IMG/VR virus record: IMGVR_UViG_2558860274_000010
Coordinates: 1 to 15,352 of that record
Source of the DNA: a virus
Taxonomy: Duplodnaviria; Heunggongvirae; Uroviricota; Caudoviricetes
Reading direction: 5' to 3' (one strand)
Length of the DNA stretch: 15,352 bases
Position 1 is the stretch's first letter, and each line of letters starts with the position of its first letter. The notes below the pieces were generated by a model that saw only the letters and a program-made list of their open reading frames with translations, did no database searches and was not told where the DNA came from. A program made the position numbers and the translations under genes. Positions 1 to 7,827 of the stretch are shown here, in pieces.

Positions 1-485
1 TTTGTTTTACCTCATTACAGATTTAAGGGTGAACAAATCCCTGCCATTGCTGGCATATAAGAATGAAACCGGATATTTATTACGGAACTGTTTTAAAGAC
101 CTGCCGGGATTTCGTTATTATCCTGGTGAATAACTTTATCGACCGGGTAACAGTTACCGGGAATTTTCTGTTCGGTTGCTGCAGTCACACACTCCTGCAT
201 TGTCCTGTGAACACTGACTGCAATATCAACTGGCTCTCCGGAAACAAGAAAAACTGTCAGAACAAGTGCAAATGCTGTATTCATTGCCAGCATCCTTTTT
301 GTATCGGACGTAAACGGGCCAGCATTGAAAGAATGCATATTTTATTTAATAACTCCCGTTCGTGTTTTCTCTTGTTAATGGCATCTTCAGTAAATACAGG
401 GTTACTGATAGTGACACCAATTTCAAAACAACCTTCAGACGTATTAACGTTTGGTAATAACGTTTCCATTATCGCGTCCTCAACA

Positions 486-794
486 ATGAATTTTGTGATG
501 CGATGCCTGGTGCCTCCAGGTGACGTTAACCAGTTAACAATTAACGCCGGATACAGAGAATGCATGACGTGTGGTAATCAGGCAGATGATCCGCATCACA
601 TCATTGGTCATGGACTGGGAGGGATGGGAACAAAGGCTGATGATTTGTTTGTTATTCCGCTGTGCCGTAAATGCCATAGCGAACTACACGCCGGGGTAAA
701 AGATTTTGAAGAAAAACACGGCAGCCAGCTGTTGTTGCTGATTCGTTTTTTAATGCACGCGAGAAATTCGGGTGTCCTGAAGTGGAAAGCATGA
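486..794 (+). CDS. nin-region Cys/His-rich zinc-binding protein (DUF1364/YbcO-like); start uncertain
   Basis: The C-terminal ~100 aa of the 63..794 frame carry a CxxC...HH...CxxCH pattern (CMTCGNQADDPHHIIGHG...CRKCHSELHAG) like small proteins found just upstream of rusA in lambdoid prophages. The stop codon abuts the rusA ATG (TGA 792-794, ATG 795). The frame is open back to 63, but the upstream part is Cys/Asn-rich and unprotein-like; ATG 486 or 495 are plausible starts. Confidence 0.45.
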   Translation: MNFVMRCLVPPGDVNQLTINAGYRECMTCGNQADDPHHIIGHGLGGMGTKADDLFVIPLCRKCHSELHAGVKDFEEKHGSQLLLLIRFLMHARNSGVLKWKA

Positions 795-1160
795 ATGACT
801 GAACGCATAGAATTTGTTTTGCCTTACCCGCCAACGGTGAACACTTACTGGCGACGTCGTGGCAGCACATATTTTGTATCAAAAGCCGGTGAGCGTTATC
901 GCCGTGATGTGGCGCTTATTGTTCGCCAGCAGCGGCTGAAATTAAACCTGTCCGGAAGGCTGGAGATAAAGATTATTGCAGAGCCACCGGATAAACGTCG
1001 TCGTGACCTGGACAATATCCTGAAAGCACCACTGGATGCGCTGACGCATGCCGGACTTCTCATAGACGACGAGCAGTTTGATGAAATCAATATTGTGCGC
1101 GGTCAGCGCGTTCCTGGGGGACGGCTGGGCGTGAAGATTTACAAAATTGAGAGTGAGTGA
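795..1160 (+). CDS. rusA: Holliday junction resolvase RusA
   Basis: 121-aa ORF with clear similarity to E. coli RusA as recalled, including the PDKRRRDLDN region, length ~120 aa and a C-terminal GGRL motif. Translationally coupled to the upstream ORF. Confidence 0.85.
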   Translation: MTERIEFVLPYPPTVNTYWRRRGSTYFVSKAGERYRRDVALIVRQQRLKLNLSGRLEIKIIAEPPDKRRRDLDNILKAPLDALTHAGLLIDDEQFDEINIVRGQRVPGGRLGVKIYKIESE

Positions 1161-1168
1161 TCGTAAAT

Positions 1169-1711
1169 ATGATATACCCGGAAATTACAGGCAAAAGCGG
1201 CGAGCATTTACGTCTAAAAACGCTGGAAGCCGTCTGGATCCAGGGGAAATTACGGATGTGGGGGCGTTGGTCGTATATAGGTGGTGGCAAACCAGGAAAT
1301 ATGTTCAATCAGTTGCTGGCATCCAAAAAACTGACAAAAACCGCAATCAATGAAGCCCTGCGTAGAATCAGGGAGTCAGGGATTGATAAACCAGAGCTGG
1401 AAGCATTCTTGCGAGAGATGATCGCTGGCAGACAGAAGAGCTGGTTGTCTCACTGTACTGATGCAGAGGCGTTACGCATTGATGGGGTGATAAGTAAAGC
1501 GCTTGCACGTTATCCTGGATTGATTGATATCCTGCGGCAAAGGTACGAAGGGCGGGGGATGAGTAAACGCAAAATGGCTGAATTGTTGAATGAGGTGCAC
1601 CCGGAATGGTGTTTTAGTACATGCGAAAAGCGAATTGCTAATTGGTTGGCTGTTGCTGAATATGCGCTATACATCCCTATGCGAGAATCGTTTGCTCAAA
1701 AAATGTCTTGA
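1169..1711 (+). CDS. putative late-gene antiterminator (Q-like)
   Basis: 180-aa ORF (ATG 1169; the track's 1157 start is GTG) placed between rusA and a strong intrinsic terminator, followed by late-region genes. This is the canonical lambdoid Q position; identity rests on synteny, not on a recognised motif. Confidence 0.5.
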   Translation: MIYPEITGKSGEHLRLKTLEAVWIQGKLRMWGRWSYIGGGKPGNMFNQLLASKKLTKTAINEALRRIRESGIDKPELEAFLREMIAGRQKSWLSHCTDAEALRIDGVISKALARYPGLIDILRQRYEGRGMSKRKMAELLNEVHPEWCFSTCEKRIANWLAVAEYALYIPMRESFAQKMS

Positions 1712-1736
1712 TTTTTTACGCATAAACTGTTTCAAT
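1708..1736 (+). promoter_or_regulatory. candidate pR'-like late promoter (TTGATT-N17-TTCAAT)
   Basis: Sigma70-like hexamers directly after the Q-like ORF and about 60-90 nt upstream of the tR'-like hairpin. Assigned by position only. Confidence 0.25.
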
Positions 1737-1795
1737 CCAGCTACGCTTCGCAAAGCTATACCGCGAGGCGAATAGCAGACATGGACACCTGAAAG

Positions 1796-1819
1796 AACCC
1801 GCTTTATGCGGGTTTTTTT
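1796..1819 (+). terminator. intrinsic terminator (tR'-like)
   Basis: Perfect 7-bp stem AACCCGC/GCGGGTT with loop TTTAT, followed by a T-run (TTTTTTT). Sits about 85 nt after the Q-like stop. Confidence 0.7.
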
Positions 1820-1942
1820 ATGTCTGAAAAACGGCACAGAACATTAAACGCGCTGGTAGTTGTGAATACTGGTCTTTCAGCTTGCTGGCTTTTTCGACAA
1901 GAGGTATTGGTATGTCACGTTAACCGGAAAAGGGAAAAAAGC

Positions 1943-2140
1943 ATGCTAAAACAGCAGGATATGACCGAAACCGCCAGAGTGGTGTTTAATGAATTAAGCG
2001 TCACCGAACCGGCGACCGTCGGGGAAATTGCGCAGAATACTTACCTTTCACGCGAACGCTGCCAGTTAATACTGACTCAGCTTGTTATGGCGGGTCTGGC
2101 AGATTATCAGTTCGGTTGTTACAGACGCCTTCCGCAGTGA
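1943..2140 (+). CDS. small HTH-like protein (65 aa), function unknown
   Basis: ATG 1943 preceded by AAGGGA at spacing ~8. The segment ATVGEIAQNTYLSRERCQLILTQLVMAGLA resembles a helix-turn-helix. The track's 1820 start overlaps the terminator and is unlikely. Confidence 0.4.
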   Translation: MLKQQDMTETARVVFNELSVTEPATVGEIAQNTYLSRERCQLILTQLVMAGLADYQFGCYRRLPQ

Positions 2141-2290
2141 AGGCTTTTTAATTTGTGGTAATGGGCGGCTGGTGGGTGTTAGCGGCACCTGCCAGCCATC
2201 TGCTCATGCGTTGGGGTCACAAGCAAACCTCAGGCCCATCTGCTTTGCGCAAAAGCGGTATGAGCCTATCAGAGAAGTGCTTATTGATCT

Positions 2291-3340
2291 ATGATTAATA
2301 CTGTAAAAATATCCAGTTGTGAGTTAATCAACGCTGATTGCCTGGAATTTATCCAGACCTTACCGGAAAACTCTGTCGATCTGATAGTCACAGACCCGCC
2401 ATACTTTAAAGTGAAGCCCGAGGGCTGGGATAACCAGTGGGAGGGCGACGATGATTACCTGAAATGGCTGGACCAGTGTCTGGCGCAGTTCTGGCGGGTA
2501 CTGAAGCCTGCCGGAAGTCTTTACCTGTTCTGTGGTCATCGCCTGGCATCTGACACCGAAATCATGATGCGTGAGCGCTTTAATGTGCTGAACCACATTA
2601 TCTGGGCGAAGCCGTCCGGACGCTGGAACGGGTGCAATAAGGAAAGTCTGCGGGCGTATTTTCCGGCAACAGAGCGCATTCTGTTTGCAGAACATTATCA
2701 GGGACCGTATCGCCCGAAAGATGATGGCTATGTGGCACAGGGGCGCGAGCTAAAACAGCACGTCATGGCCCCGCTGATTTCTTACTTTCGTGATGCGCGT
2801 AAATCACTGGGAATAACGTCAAAACAGATAGCGGAAGCCACCGGAAAGAAAAACATGGCTTCGCACTGGTTTGGTACCAGTCAGTGGCAGTTACCGAACG
2901 AGGGTAATTACAACAAATTGCAGGCGTTGTTTGCGCGTGTTGCGGCAGAAAAACATCAGCGCGGGGAACTGGAAAAGCCACACCACCAGCTGGTCAGCAC
3001 ATACAGTGAGCTGAACCGGCAGTATACGGAACTGCTGAGTGAATATAAAAATTTGCGGCGGTATTTCGGTGTGACGGCGCAGGTTCCGTACACCGATGTC
3101 TGGACGCATAAACCGGTGCAGTACTATCCAGGGAAACATCCGTGCGAAAAACCGGCAGAAATGCTGCAGCAGATAATCAACGCGAGCAGTCGTCCGGGAG
3201 ACCTGGTTGCAGATTTTTTTATGGGTTCAGGTTCAACGGTAAAAGCGGCGATGGCACTGGGGCGTTGTGCGATTGGTGTTGAGCTGGAGACAGGACGTTT
3301 TGAACAGACAGTCAGGGAAGTTCAGGATTTAATCGTTTGA
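2291..3340 (+). CDS. DNA methyltransferase (N6-adenine or N4-cytosine, beta-class), apparently orphan
   Basis: 349-aa ORF with catalytic DPPY motif near the N-terminus (IVTDPPYF) and an FxGxG AdoMet-binding motif near the C-terminus (FFMGSGST). No restriction endonuclease partner is evident nearby. Confidence 0.8.
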   Translation: MINTVKISSCELINADCLEFIQTLPENSVDLIVTDPPYFKVKPEGWDNQWEGDDDYLKWLDQCLAQFWRVLKPAGSLYLFCGHRLASDTEIMMRERFNVLNHIIWAKPSGRWNGCNKESLRAYFPATERILFAEHYQGPYRPKDDGYVAQGRELKQHVMAPLISYFRDARKSLGITSKQIAEATGKKNMASHWFGTSQWQLPNEGNYNKLQALFARVAAEKHQRGELEKPHHQLVSTYSELNRQYTELLSEYKNLRRYFGVTAQVPYTDVWTHKPVQYYPGKHPCEKPAEMLQQIINASSRPGDLVADFFMGSGSTVKAAMALGRCAIGVELETGRFEQTVREVQDLIV

Positions 3341-3389
3341 AACGGATGGGATTGCAGAATTAATTACGCACCATTATTATTCTGCTACC

Positions 3390-3465
3390 GGCCCTTTAGC
3401 TCAGTGGTGAGAGCGAGCGACTCATAATCGCCAGGTCGCTGGTTCAAATCCAGCAAGGGCCACCA
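3390..3465 (+). tRNA. ileZ: tRNA with anticodon CAT (Ile2/lysidine type or Met; ileZ-like)
   Basis: Manual cloverleaf: acceptor GGCCCTT/AAGGGCC, D-arm GCTC/GAGC, anticodon loop CTCATAA, T-arm GCTGG-TTCAAAT-CCAGC, encoded CCA at 3463-3465. Confidence 0.85.
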
Positions 3466-3472
3466 TCACATA

Positions 3473-3549
3473 CCGCCATTAGCTCATCGGCAGAGAGCGT
3501 CAGCTTTCGAAACTGGCTGTGTGGGGCCCGGGTCCCCGATGGCAATCCA
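3473..3549 (+). tRNA. argN: atypical tRNA-Arg-like, anticodon TCG (argN-like)
   Basis: Manual fold: D-arm GCTC/GAGC, anticodon loop TTTCGAA with U33 and A37, encoded CCA at 3547-3549. Irregularities: two C-A mismatches at the acceptor end, one mismatch closing the anticodon stem, and a non-canonical T-loop CCCGGGT. Confidence 0.5.
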
Positions 3550-3562
3550 TTATCTGCATTAT

Positions 3563-3639
3563 GCGTTGTTAGCTCAGCCGGACAGAGCAATTGCCTTCTA
3601 AGCAATCGGTCACTGGTTCGAATCCAGTACAACGCGCCA
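3563..3639 (+). tRNA. argO: tRNA-Arg, anticodon TCT (argO-like)
   Basis: Manual cloverleaf: perfect acceptor GCGTTGT/ACAACGC, anticodon stem ATTGC/GCAAT with loop CTTCTAA, T-arm with TTCGAAT loop, encoded CCA at 3637-3639. Confidence 0.85.
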
Positions 3640-3776
3640 TATTCATTCTTCCAGATTTCTTCCGGCAGAGCCTTATACTGGAATATACCTGGCTCAGGAT
3701 ATTGTTGAAAATATTATATGTTTGTCAAAAATAAAAGTTCTGTTAAGTATTGATTGAGTGTTTGTTATACGGTCTA

Positions 3777-4103
3777 ATGGTTTTTTCAGTATTAAATATT
3801 TATCATTCATATGGTGTGGGTAGAGTGAATATTGATGAGGCGTCGGGGTGTTTCATCCTTAGGCAGCGTATTGATATAGTCAATGCAGCACGAGCAAAGG
3901 CCTTCAGCCGTTTGACAGTTTTGTTCTGTACTCCTGATCGTCTTTTGGGAAGAGACGTTATTATTCTGAATAGTGATGCTATACAGAGGGTTTGCGATGA
4001 GTTCATGGTTGCTAATTCAGAATTATTTGCTCTTGTTCAGGAGTACAACAGAATAGCCAGGACCTGTGGTATGGATGAACTTCGGATTACTCATCTGGGG
4101 TAG
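3777..4103 (+). CDS. hypothetical protein (108 aa from first ATG), unknown function
   Basis: Open frame 3750..4103 (TTG at 3750, first ATG at 3777) in AT-rich DNA right after the tRNA cluster. A TTGTCA-N17-TAAGTAT promoter-like element lies at 3721-3749. No convincing Shine-Dalgarno and no recognisable family. Confidence 0.3.
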   Translation: MVFSVLNIYHSYGVGRVNIDEASGCFILRQRIDIVNAARAKAFSRLTVLFCTPDRLLGRDVIILNSDAIQRVCDEFMVANSELFALVQEYNRIARTCGMDELRITHLG

Positions 4104-4494
4104 ATACATATCTGGATTATCACCTGTTACGGTAAAAAGTGATTGCTTACTGTTTTTGTGAATGGCATTGCAGCAGCCGGATAATGTCAGTGCTGGCTGA
4201 CGGTGTGCTGGTGGCGGGTGTGGTGGTTGTTGCTTTCCCGTTGCTGAAAAAGAAAACGCCAGACTGTTAGCCGGGTATCAGTTAGCGGGAGAAATTTTTA
4301 AATACTTCACAATTCAGGCGGTTGACTGTTGTCTGGTTTGCGGGGAGTTTGTTAAAAGAAACTGGCATGGTGAATCCCCCTGTGCGGTGGGGCAATCAGC
4401 GAGTAGGTATATGGGATAATCGCGGATTCAGGTGCTGGTACTGAATTCACCGGGAGGCACCCGGCACCATGCAATGGCACATAGCGCCACTCTC

Positions 4495-4524
4495 CAGCCC
4501 CTCTCCGGAGGGGCTGTTTATATT
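4495..4524 (+). terminator. intrinsic terminator-like hairpin
   Basis: 9-bp stem CAGCCCCTC/GAGGGGCTG with loop TCCG, followed by a T-rich tract (TTTATATTGATTTT) on the + strand. Lies immediately 3' of the stop of the minus-strand ORF 4518..4886. Confidence 0.4.
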
Positions 4525-4886
4525 GATTTTGTCAGATGTGAGTAAACTCCTGATGGACTTTGTTGTTTTAGTCCATAAGGACATATTTGCAGAGTGCAAC
4601 GGTTATTAAAGCATTCATTCAATACGTTATCTGTATTTGTAGGGCATTCCTGGCTGTTTTTGATTAAATTCCAGAATGTTTTATTGAATGGTACTACGTT
4701 GTAAATGGTTACAGGTAGCACTTTGTTATTGAGCATGATGCCTGTGTGAGTCAGTGTAAATATACTTTCAGGAGGTAAGAAAGCATCCGATTGATACCAG
4801 ATTATTAATTTTATTTTACTCCATATGACTGAAAAAGATATTCCGCATGATGGCTGGATAACTGTATCAATCACAATCCACTTCAT
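4518..4886 (-). CDS. hypothetical protein (122 aa), AT-rich cargo gene
   Basis: Minus-strand ORF with a good ribosome-binding site (AAGGAAAGTAA then ATG). Low GC compared with the flanks; no recognisable family or signal peptide. Confidence 0.4.
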
Positions 4887-5186
4887 TTACTTTCCTTGTT
4901 TATGCCTTGCTGGTGATGTTCTGAAAAGTATAAATGATATTTTTGAATTAAACCATAGAGCAGAATTATTTTTCTGATGTTGTTTATTGTTTATTTAAAT
5001 ACAGGGTGGTTTATATCTCGTCTTGTAGTTTATCCATGCATATCTGCTTGATAATCAGGTTTTTATTTAAGGTATGGTTTTGTGTTTTTTCTGTATAGAC
5101 TGGCCCCCTGAATCTCCAGACAACCAATATCACTTAAATAAGTGATAGTCTTAATACTAGTTTTTAGACTAGTCATTGGAGAACAG

Positions 5187-5552
5187 ATGATTGATGTCTT
5201 AGGGCCGGAGAAACGCAGACGGCGTACCACACAGGAAAAGATCGCAATTATTCAGCAGAGCTTTGAACCGGGGATGACGGTCTCCCTCGTTGCCCGGCAA
5301 CATGGTGTAGCAGCCAGCCAGTTATTTCTCTGGCGTAAGCAATACCAGGAAGGAAGTCTTACTGCTGTCGCCGCCGGAGAACAGGTTGTTCCTGCCTCTG
5401 AACTTGCTGCCGCCATGAAGCAGATTAAAGAACTCCAGCGCCTGCTCGGCAAGAAAACGATGGAAAATGAACTCCTCAAAGAAGCCGTTGAATATGGACG
5501 GGCAAAAAAGTGGATAGCGCACGCGCCCTTATTGCCCGGGGATGGGGAGTAA
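5187..5552 (+). CDS. insC: IS2 transposase OrfA (InsC)
   Basis: 121 aa beginning [21 protein letters not shown]..., preceded by GGAGAACAG. Matches IS2 InsC as recalled. Confidence 0.85.
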
Positions 5553-5722
5553 GCTTAGTCAGCCGTTGTCTCCGGGTGTCGCGTGCGCAGTTGCACGTCA
5601 TTCTCAGACGAACCGATGACTGGATGGATGGCCGCCGCAGTCGTCACACTGATGATACGGATGTGCTTCTCCGTATACACCATGTTATCGGAGAGCTGCC
5701 CACGTATGGTTATCGTCGGGTA
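5510..5722 (+). pseudogene. insD: IS2 orfB (insD) 5' fragment, truncated after codon 71
   Basis: [30 protein letters not shown]...PTYGYRRV matches the InsD N-terminus. The expected continuation is replaced from 5723 by unrelated sequence in the same frame. Confidence 0.7.
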
Positions 5723-6919
5723 CAGAAGAACCCGAAAAATGTGTTGCTGGCGGTGTGCTGGATGCAGGGAGAGTTTGACATGAGCGCCGCCACCCACGCA
5801 CAGCAACCTGCGCTGTTTACAGCCATGCTGACACAGTTTCGTGCTGACCTCTCCGTGTTTAACGCGCAGTGCCATGGTGGCAGTGCTGCAGATGTGCCGT
5901 GGATTTGTGGTGACACGACGTATTACTGGAAAAATACATACGCTACCCAGTACGACACCGTGTACGGCGGGTATAAAAACAGGGAGAGTGAGGGCGTTTA
6001 TTTTGTGCCCTTCATGACAGACGGTAACGGCGTCAATACCGCCACTAACGCGCCGGCAGAAGATCCGGATATTCCGGCATCAGGATATTACGGTGCGGCA
6101 TCGAGAACGAATGGAAACCAGGTATCATCAAACCGCCCGACACATTTCAGTTCATGGGCGCGCAGGAGCATTATTCCGGATCGTCTGGCAACCGCTATTC
6201 TGAACGCAGCCGGGCGCACCTCAGCCTTCATCAGTGGTAAGGCACCGGAAATCAAACCCTCGCCCGGCGGCAACACGCCATCGGGTCCGTCTGCAGATAC
6301 GTCCGTTCGCACAATCTCCCTGCTGCCGGCAGCCGGAGAGGCTGCTGCGCAGGGCTGGAGCATTAAGGATGGCGGAATTCAGTTGTCAGATGGTGTATTT
6401 AAGATCACCAAGCAGAGCAATAAAACCTGGTCCCTGACGCATCCGGTGGATGACGCAATTACCCTGCTGACACAGGGCGGCAGACTGACCTGTAAGTTCC
6501 GCCTGTCAGGCGCACTGACCAACAATCAGTTCGGGCTGGGGATTTATCTGTATACGGATGCTCCCGTTCCTGATGGTGTGGCGATGACGGGTACCGGTAA
6601 TCCGTTCCTGATGTCGTACTTCACTCAGACCACTGACGGCAGAGTGAATCTGATGCATCACAGGAAAGCCGGAAACACGAAGCTGGGGGAGTTCGGCGAT
6701 TACGGTAACGACTGGCAGACGCTGGAGCTGGTGTTCACCGCCGGCAGTGCCACGGTTACTCCGAAACTGAATGGAGTGGCTGGCCCGGCATTCCAGGTTA
6801 TAAAAGACGGTCTGACACTGGGACTGAATGCGCTGACGCTGACGGATGTTACAAAAAATGCAGCGTATGGCGTTGAGATAGAAAGTCTGGTGCTGGAGAT
6901 AAATGCACCGGCAGCATAA
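5723..6919 (+). pseudogene. 3' portion of a prophage nanS-p/YjhS-family sialate O-acetylesterase gene, 5'-truncated and fused in frame to the IS2 orfB stub
   Basis: Translation from 5723 ([19 protein letters not shown]...[12 protein letters not shown]...YGGYKN...[20 protein letters not shown]...[14 protein letters not shown]) parallels the C-terminal half of E. coli NanS/YjhS as recalled, followed by a ~250-aa extension. The N-terminal part of the gene is absent. The position between the tRNAs and the holin matches where Stx phages carry nanS-p. Confidence 0.6.
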
Positions 6920-7285
6920 TAAAAAAGAGCCAGCGACTGACCTGAAAGAAGACGCTGGCTAAAAGGCCTTATATGTTTGTAGAGACTTATTTTTCACAGA
7001 CAGCAATGATGCCTGTCAATATATTATCAATATGCGGATTGTTTCAGTTACAGATGCTTTATTAAGGAAAAAAACAGCCAGCACTGACTTTCGGTGGAGA
7101 GGTGCTGGCTCAGAAGGATAGTTGGATTTCACATGATACTTATGCCTGGCGGTATATTTTCTGACAGACAGTGACGGGTGTTGTCAAGATATTGTGTCAT
7201 TTATAACCTGAATCAGGGGAGGCCGGAATGTTATCTGGCATTTTTAGCAGAGCCTGAATGCCATAATCACGGCTCCCGGAGTTGG

Positions 7286-7321
7286 CCGTCAGTGGGTGAC
7301 ACTGGCGGTTTTTTTGTTTTT
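7286..7321 (+). terminator. intrinsic terminator upstream of the holin
   Basis: 9-bp stem CCGTCAGTG/CACTGGCGG (one G-U pair) with loop GGTGA, followed by TTTTTTTGTTTTT. Lies 45 nt upstream of the holin start. Confidence 0.5.
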
Positions 7322-7365
7322 CTTTACTTTCATTTTCTGTCGGCGGTGACGGAGACATACATCAG

Positions 7366-7572
7366 ATGGAAAAAATCACAACGGGTGTGTCATACACCAC
7401 GTCAGCGGTGGGGACGGGATACTGGTTACTGCAGCTGCTGGACAAAGTCTCTCCGTCCCAGTGGGTGGCAATCGGTGTGCTGGGGAGTCTGCTGTTTGGC
7501 CTGCTGACGTATCTGACTAACCTTTATTTCAAGATTAAAGAAGATAAGCGTAAGGTGGCGCGGGGAGAGTAG
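7366..7572 (+). CDS. class II holin, phage-21 S21-type pinholin
   Basis: 68-aa ORF closely resembling the phage 21 pinholin as recalled (two TMDs, GYW and [14 protein letters not shown] motifs, C-terminal [13 protein letters not shown]). GGAGA ribosome-binding site upstream. Confidence 0.85.
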
Positions 7573-7827
7573 TCGATGAATAAACAATACGAACTGGTTG
7601 TAAAATGAATATTTCTAACTGAAAAAACGTTCCATGAGGTAAGAAAAGGTCACAGGCAATCAATAACAGGACGTGATGAAAGACCCTTGCATTTGTGCGC
7701 TTTCTCTTTAGATAGCAGCAGATACTGAAAATCTGAGTTGTCGGGGAGTCAGGGATACAGCTGTGCAAGAGTTGGTCATTGTGATTCCATTGAAATCCTG
7801 TATGCCATGAAGGGCAGGATTTTATGG

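Follow-up and report, generated by a model that had tools for sequence, protein, structure and literature searches.

The open reading frame (ORF) at 4518-4886 on the minus strand of the stretch analysed here (the window: 15,352 nt, positions 1 to 15,352 of the IMG/VR virus record IMGVR_UViG_2558860274_000010) is very probably iraL, a gene carried on a prophage and belonging to the IraM/IraL/RssC family of anti-adaptors. It has an ATG start and 122 codons followed by TAA, and is a stop-loss allele of the gene; the window around it is a decayed lambdoid prophage. iraL is already known, and the exact 122-amino acid (aa) protein is already public, annotated by NCBI as 'anti-adapter protein IraM [Escherichia albertii]'. 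What is documented here is the occurrence of iraL in E. albertii, where the decayed prophage that carries it also holds type III effector genes.

Direct alignment shows residues 1-111 to be the same as in IraL from the uropathogenic E. coli strain CFT073 (WP_000871291.1, 111 aa), a protein annotated both in the CFT073 potB-island prophage and in strain 2013C-3252, and for which the NCBI name is anti-adapter protein IraM. The NCBIfam IraM model NF007393 matches residues 1-110 across profile positions 1-113 of 114, with 161.6 bits against a cutoff of 121. A Pfam scan of the protein gave no match at an E-value of 0.01 or better; precomputed annotation tables assign it to PF11183, the PmrD family. 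Megablast against 5,426 complete E. coli genomes returned hundreds of 99.7%-identical matches, annotated as 'anti-adapter protein IraM'. The initial annotation had proposed no function for the product, and homology and structure searches lead to a characterised anti-adaptor. The CFT073 gene, formerly YcgW, was renamed iraL and characterised by Hryckowian et al. 2014 (PMC4045071). IraL stabilises σS in exponential phase, doubling its half-life in log phase, and in two-hybrid assays binds only RssB's N-terminal domain (PMC4045071). Both RssB binding and RpoS stabilisation were shown for the identical 111-aa protein (CFT073 and S. sonnei), which was reported to be 58.9% identical to K-12 IraM (PMC4045071).

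Hryckowian et al. 2014 distinguished iraL from iraM by at least 95% nucleotide identity to CFT073 iraL across the whole coding region, with no overlap with iraM. The ORF aligns to the CFT073 gene with no difference save TAA/TCA at one codon, while its coding DNA is about 70% identical to K-12-type iraM and 77% identical to the O157 paralogue. The 122-codon, ATG-started ORF is real and, as first noted, has a much lower GC content than its surroundings, at 34.4% vs 47.2% for the whole window, with the three codon positions about equally AT-rich. Among three colinear paralogues (the window gene, K-12 iraM, and the O157:H7 Stx2c-phage gene) dN/dS is 0.10-0.15, with synonymous sites near saturation, and purifying selection is strong. 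Both conservation and codon-level constraint, on which the initial annotation had made its case for a genuine gene depend, are therefore present. The product has five cysteines (C14, C81, C92, C97, and C102), one fewer than had been counted. An N-terminal signal-like segment is indeed absent, which fits a cytoplasmic protein.

DNA homologous to the ORF is present in 4,758 of the 5,426 complete E. coli genomes. The best match in the record has at least 95% identity, and is of the iraL type, in 1,415 cases. Best matches at about 77% identity are the O157 prophage paralogue, and those at about 70%, which account for most of the 3,331 records between 60% and 80%, are of the K-12 iraM type. Deposited phage records carrying a family member number 46; four Escherichia phage records are of the iraL type, and another 41, most of them phages that convert to Stx2a or Stx2c, show about 71-73% identity and often have no annotation for the gene. 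When 1.84 billion representative proteins were searched with a profile, about 50 full-length relatives were found, in Salmonella, Citrobacter, Enterobacter, Klebsiella, Cronobacter, Kosakonia, Intestinirhabdus, Dryocola, and Franconibacter.

The predicted structure of the product agrees with this assignment. The IraM chain of the IraM-RssB complex (PDB 8TWD, chain A) matches residues 1-78 with an E-value of 1.2e-31. The AlphaFold model, made with 46 family members aligned, has a pLDDT of 85-96 for core residues 1-80, with strands within residues 2-66 and a helix at 69-77, and its best Foldseek match is 8TWD_A (TM 0.89, rmsd 1.2 Å over 77 residues). Residues 1-78 would thus form a PmrD-like beta-barrel core contacting RssB, and the antiparallel beta-barrel and C-terminal helix of the IraM family are present within them. 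The next Foldseek matches are three PmrD structures (2JSO, 4HN7, and 2RQX), with nothing else below an E-value of 1. The TM scores of 0.71-0.73, normalised to the target, and the precomputed PF11183 labels could be taken to indicate a PmrD-type connector that acts on PmrA or some other response regulator instead of RssB. This is highly improbable, as the identity to the PmrD structures is only 14-20%, against 65% to the RssB-bound IraM core, where the cluster of receiver-domain contacts is fully conserved. PmrD proteins (81-88 aa) are also without the tail of four cysteines described below, and the identical protein binds RssB experimentally (PMC4045071). The window protein is predicted to share the PmrD fold but does not appear to be a PmrD orthologue.

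The crystal structure of IraM with RssB and the clusters of residues at the interface have been described (PMC10844676). In cluster I, which contacts the RssB N-terminal receiver domain (IraM I4, I6, W22, K26, and I42), all five residues are identical in the window protein. Cluster II, facing the RssB C-terminal domain (T13, C14, F18, W30, and L75), has three out of five identical, with the conservative changes T13S and L75I, and cluster III, at the RssB linker (I61, Y62, H63, and I64), has two out of four, with H63N and I64V; P66 is retained. A pattern in which cluster I is intact and clusters II and III are substituted would fit the N-domain-only RssB binding of IraL. IraM truncated at residue 78 still binds RssB, the full-length protein having been reported as unstable and insoluble (PMC10844676). 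On the side of the host, RssB of the E. albertii type strain is identical to that of K-12 at 322 of 337 residues, and all 23 RssB positions checked, covering the hinge, the interface, the IraM-resistance residues, and the phosphorylation site D58, are unchanged.

By analogy with the identical 111-aa CFT073 protein and with K-12 IraM, the small cytoplasmic IraL of the window would fold as a PmrD-like beta-barrel and dock on RssB, an adaptor of the response-regulator type, chiefly at the N-terminal receiver domain, so that RssB no longer delivers RpoS, the stress sigma factor, to the protease ClpXP. The level of RpoS would then rise even in exponential growth, and the general stress regulon would be primed. 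The gene would be driven by its own σ70 promoter, with its transcript ending at a hairpin shared with an STnc100-family small RNA (sRNA). The same analogy suggests that the 122-aa allele may be expressed and active in E. albertii.

For the promoter, the 5' RACE end reported for CFT073 iraL is ACATCACCAGCAAGGCATAAACAAGGAAACCA (PMC4045071), which is matched in the window by ACATCACCAGCAAGGCATAAACAAGGAAA, placing the transcription start by homology at 4919. This gives a 5' untranslated region (UTR) of 33 nt (4887-4919, minus strand), with the Shine-Dalgarno (SD) sequence AAGGA at 4893-4897. There is a probable -10 hexamer, TATACT, at 4927-4932 (minus strand), its position being put at -13 to -8, and the 210 nt upstream of the ATG have a GC content of 28.6%. 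In CFT073 the fragment from -100 to +33 is sufficient for iraL complementation (PMC4045071). An iraL promoter is recognised by at least 96% identity to CFT073 from -100 to the transcription start, together with the mapped start; the window has this identity and the matching start sequence, and its promoter is a putative functional equivalent. A simple σ70 scan did not flag the mapped promoter and found fewer sites than in shuffled sequences. The SD sequence lies 6 nt before the ATG, with an anti-SD duplex energy of -5.4 kcal/mol, the fifth among 12 real genes; stronger duplexes include those of the PerC-like gene (-10.2), the holin (-6.6), and insC (-6.4). The ribosome-binding site is therefore a decent one, not one of the best in the window as had been thought.

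Further 5' is a PhoP-box-like direct repeat, TGTTTA-TTGTT-TATTTA (4981-4997, plus strand; -62 to -78), with one mismatch to the consensus. PhoP acting at this candidate box would make the gene an IraM-type anti-adaptor, induced by PhoP and Mg2+ starvation, as opposed to a constitutive log-phase IraL. This is the only one-mismatch site in the window, yet 54 of 200 shuffles give at least one, so that in AT-rich DNA a single match is not significant alone. The diverged Stx2c-phage paralogue has a one-mismatch box in the equivalent upstream position (3889-3905 of locus L016, the O157:H7 SS52 Stx2c prophage, minus strand), each repeat lying some 95-111 nt upstream of its ATG, on the opposite strand from the gene; the upstream region of the window gene, however, cannot be aligned with the K-12 iraM promoter. 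In Shigella flexneri ycgW is 11-fold down in a phoPQ mutant (PMC5775216), but ycgW is the old name for both iraM and iraL. The label IraM given to the protein by NCBI would also agree with PhoP control, while IraL raises σS in unstressed log-phase CFT073 (PMC4045071). Induction through PhoP is on these grounds rather unlikely, and expression as a log-phase IraL is the preferred reading.

The sole coding-region difference from the CFT073 and 2013C-3252 genes is a single base, TAA to TCA at codon 112 (4551-4553, minus strand), which is a stop codon in CFT073 and 2013C-3252, as well as in all the complete E. coli genomes searched. The serine encoded here is followed by ten further sense codons and a new TAA at 4518-4520 (4518-4550 in all, minus strand), such that the former 3' UTR is now translated and an 11-residue extension brings the protein to 122 aa vs 111 aa elsewhere. 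In the 5,426 complete E. coli genomes there is no 100% match to the ORF, the best being 99.7%, and the stop-loss allele is absent. Nor does any of these genomes cover at least 80% of the window when it is searched whole, with its IS2 junction, because the window is sequence of E. albertii KF1: the KF1 chromosome (CP007025.1) is 100% identical to the window across the 10,886 nt compared. The 122-aa protein is encoded on 13 contigs, all of those with a species name being E. albertii, while the 111-aa form is on more than 1,000.

Ten stop-loss loci were retrieved, and the gene and at least 206 nt upstream of it are identical in all of them. Five have the same IS2 junction, four are on contigs that break at the junction or within 3 nt of it, and one is without IS2. 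This last locus (L008, from a chicken-gut metagenome) carries the stop-loss allele and runs into a normal DUF1737/esterase gene, and the stop-loss is therefore older than the IS2 insertion. The extension (residues 110-122) is predicted by AlphaFold to be disordered, with a pLDDT below 50, and the C-termini of the family vary freely in length and sequence after the CPYG motif. As IraM 1-78 alone also still forms the complex, the 11-residue extension is probably neutral.

The IS2 remnant (5096-5722, plus strand) consists of the left inverted repeat, insC, and the start of insD, corresponding to IS2 positions 1-627 of 1331, and is 99.7% identical to K-12 IS2A. A complete IS2 was rejected, as only 627 of the 1331 bp are present. 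The left inverted repeat (TAGACTGGCCCCCTGAATC...) begins at 5096/5097, 210 nt upstream of the iraL ATG, and the initial annotation had correctly placed the left end of IS2 at 5096, next to the iraL upstream region. On the other side is the 3' remnant of a phage SASA-esterase/DUF6645 (nanS-p-like) gene (5723-6919, plus strand), fused in frame to the insD start. The resulting chimeric ORF (5510-6919, plus strand, 469 aa) contains the insD start and the last ~400 codons of the nanS-p-like esterase/DUF6645 gene, which normally diverges from iraL; deletion has removed the right half of IS2 together with the N-terminal SASA/DUF1737 part of the esterase. That the insertion altered the expression of iraL, as was first suggested, is possible but not indicated. 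The core region from -100 to +33 is intact, since IS2 ends at -177, that is 177 bp upstream of where transcription starts, and has its transposase genes transcribed away from iraL. IS2 more plausibly cripples the phage late operon, on the plus strand, than alters iraL expression.

Several observations weigh against a working gene and would suggest a decaying copy, either not expressed or with an inactive product. The stop codon is lost, the allele is rare by the contig counts given above, and the extension directly follows the invariant cysteine motif, where it could affect folding or stability. Within -100 to +33 there are three differences from the validated CFT073 promoter and leader, namely the loss of 1 nt from the -35/spacer region, a G to A change at -2, and, next to the SD sequence, CC to GT, and the expression of copies with a -35 change is questioned in the IraL paper (PMC4045071). 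The prophage around the gene is heavily decayed by the IS2 remnant, ISEc8, and deletions: it is without an immunity/replication region, its esterase is truncated, and ISEc8 has inserted between holin and lysozyme, and iraL could therefore be on its way to loss. The reading frame from 1 to 111 is, however, untouched and identical to the functional protein. The promoter allele is common to many E. coli genomes, matching at 99.7% over 797 nt, and is hence no private lesion. The identity of gene and upstream region across the ten loci includes L008, where there is no IS2, and neither the free variation of C-termini after CPYG nor the RssB binding of IraM cut at residue 78 would lead one to expect a defect from the extension. 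A decaying, non-functional copy is improbable, and iraL is preferred as a functional gene.

An STnc100-family prophage sRNA gene (4336-4525, plus strand), a full-length match to Rfam RF02076 with 130.5 bits against a gathering score of 47, is convergent with iraL, and the ends of the sRNA and the extended ORF overlap by 8 nt. A 9-bp GC-rich hairpin, CAGCCCCTC-TCCG-GAGGGGCTG, at 4495-4516 has a T-run on the plus strand only; on the minus strand it is three nucleotides past the new iraL stop. This hairpin is the terminator of the sRNA and also the 3' hairpin of the iraL transcript. The pairing of an IraM-family gene with a convergent STnc100 is seen also in 2013C-3252, the SS52 Stx2c prophage, and phage vB_EcoS-640R1, and was not found at K-12 iraM. 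In RefSeq relatives, a partial 'hypothetical protein' pseudogene is annotated across the sRNA locus. STnc100 has been described as a prophage sRNA related to PasD, in a preprint without mention of iraM or iraL (bioRxiv 10.64898/2026.05.13.724894).

Within the prophage, iraL is antisense in the late region, between Q and the tRNAs on one side and the esterase and lysis genes on the other, with its own transcription start by homology. Being AT-rich, on the opposite strand in the late region, and equipped with its own promoter and a 3' hairpin, iraL is a classic phage moron, that is, a lysogenic-conversion gene. The same features support the separate acquisition proposed in the initial annotation. 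The same slot is occupied in CFT073, E. coli 2013C-3252, and phage vB_EcoS-640R1, and by the paralogue in Stx2 phages, where the slot between tRNAs and esterase is the position of stx and the paralogue directly follows stx2B. A location beside tRNA clusters, raised initially as a possible constant of the family, is found for the prophage copies looked at but not for K-12 iraM. The IraM-family gene, the convergent STnc100 sRNA, and the late tRNAs thus make up a recurrent moron block in the lambdoid stx slot.

The order of genes in the window is ydfD, dicB, a DUF968 fragment, RusA, a DUF1133/Q-like protein, a DNA methylase, two tRNAs, the sRNA, and iraL, followed by the IS2 and esterase remnants, holin, ISEc8, lysozyme, Rz, a PerC-like regulator, and effectors of the EspF-repeat and EspJ-like types. 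At the left end, ydfD (93-284, minus strand) and dicB (281-469, minus strand) adjoin a C-terminal DUF968 fragment (to 794, plus strand) and RusA, and the immunity and replication region has therefore been lost; a 243-aa ORF at 63-794 is largely an artefact of the dicB/DUF968 junction. The late-region tRNA pair (3390-3639, plus strand) consists of a tRNA with a CAT anticodon (3390-3465) and tRNA-Arg TCT (3563-3639). The former is tRNA-Met according to ARAGORN and tRNA-Ile (lysidine-type, ileX/ileZ-like) in RefSeq relatives, and the two together make up the set of rare-codon tRNAs usual in Stx-type phages. A 117-aa ORF (3750-4103, plus strand) without a Pfam match separates tRNA-Arg from the sRNA, and a gene of 108-117 aa is called at the equivalent position in the related contigs L006-L008 and L010-L012.

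The lysis cassette is split, with the holin at 7366-7572 and the lysozyme at 10710-11243, by an IS66-family ISEc8-like element (8261-10594, plus strand) with tnpA at 8261-8662, tnpB at 8659-9006, and tnpC at 9056-10594. The virulence cargo is at the right end, where there are a PerC-like regulator (12512-12826, plus strand), an EspF-repeat TccP/EspFU-like effector (13784-14374, minus strand), and an AvrPphF-ORF2/EspJ-like effector (14699-15352, minus strand) that continues past the end of the window. The prophage would in this way couple virulence cargo (TccP-like, EspJ-like, and PerC-like) with an RpoS-raising device.

Beyond the crystallised core, the protein has a conserved tail of four cysteines (Cys4; residues 79-107, with C81-C102 at 4581-4646, minus strand), with the motif CP-x9-10-C-x4-5-C-x4-CP[YF]G, in which C81, C92, C97, and C102 are all present in the window protein. 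The motif was defined as a family hallmark in this analysis, from an alignment of 46 diverse members down to 20% identity. All four tail cysteines are found in 45 of the 46 sequences; the only invariant columns are C81, C97, and C102, with C92, P103, W72, and P12 at 98%, while the RssB-contact residues are much less conserved, their top residue having a frequency of 24-93%. C14, the only cysteine within the crystallised core, is variable across the family. The Cys4 block, the only one in the family that is invariant or nearly so, is shared by Escherichia, Salmonella, Citrobacter, Enterobacter, Klebsiella, Cronobacter, Kosakonia, and Franconibacter. In AlphaFold models the pLDDT of residues 81-109 is below 50 with a shallow alignment and 53-63 with the 46 sequences.

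For the crystal structure the IraM tail was cut off, and the authors called it flexible and less conserved (PMC10844676). Targeted searches of selected IraM papers found no mention of the tail cysteines, and a broad zinc/cysteine search was uninformative; the conserved tail may be a new point. Tentatively, from the conservation of the motif, it could be a zinc- or redox-sensing module controlling the stability or activity of the anti-adaptor, perhaps modulable by an extension that begins six residues past CPYG. The invariant tail offers a concrete hypothesis for post-translational regulation of IraM/IraL anti-adaptors. Beside the identification of iraL there are three minor leads, namely the stop-loss allele, the overlap with the sRNA, and the Cys4 tail.

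Among known systems, the closest is CFT073 IraL, with which the window copy shares residues 1-111, a homologous 5' UTR and start sequence, and the expected RssB binding and log-phase stabilisation of RpoS. The slot is likewise the same, with Q/antiterminator, tRNAs, small ORFs and sRNA, iraL on the opposite strand, the esterase/DUF1737 gene, and holin. The window copy differs in having TCA at codon 112 and hence 122 aa, in its three promoter/UTR changes, in its host, E. albertii, and in the IS2 remnant at -177 that replaces the divergent esterase promoter region. K-12 IraM (b1160) is of the same family and fold, being 62% identical across 107 aa and 65% identical across the crystallised core, with the same cluster I contacts and the four tail cysteines. 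However, K-12 iraM is regulated by PhoP and Mg2+ from a promoter that cannot be aligned, and its neighbour is the e14 remnant, with neither tRNAs nor an STnc100 sRNA at the locus. K-12 IraM also binds both RssB domains, while the window protein is substituted at the contacts to the RssB C-terminal domain and linker.

The paralogue of Stx2a and Stx2c phages (O157:H7 SS52, WP_001303568.1) has 75% amino-acid identity, with the same orientation and slot, the convergent STnc100 sRNA, the downstream esterase, and the same position of the PhoP-box-like repeat. It differs in being directly after stx2B and only 107 aa long (L016 4001-4324). No characterisation of this paralogue was found, and most such phage records leave the gene unannotated. 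PmrD (4HN7, 2JSO, and 2RQX) resembles the window protein in the unusual beta-barrel and in being a small protein that binds a response-regulator receiver domain, but it binds phospho-PmrA, with another outcome, has 14-20% identity, and carries no Cys4 C-terminal tail.

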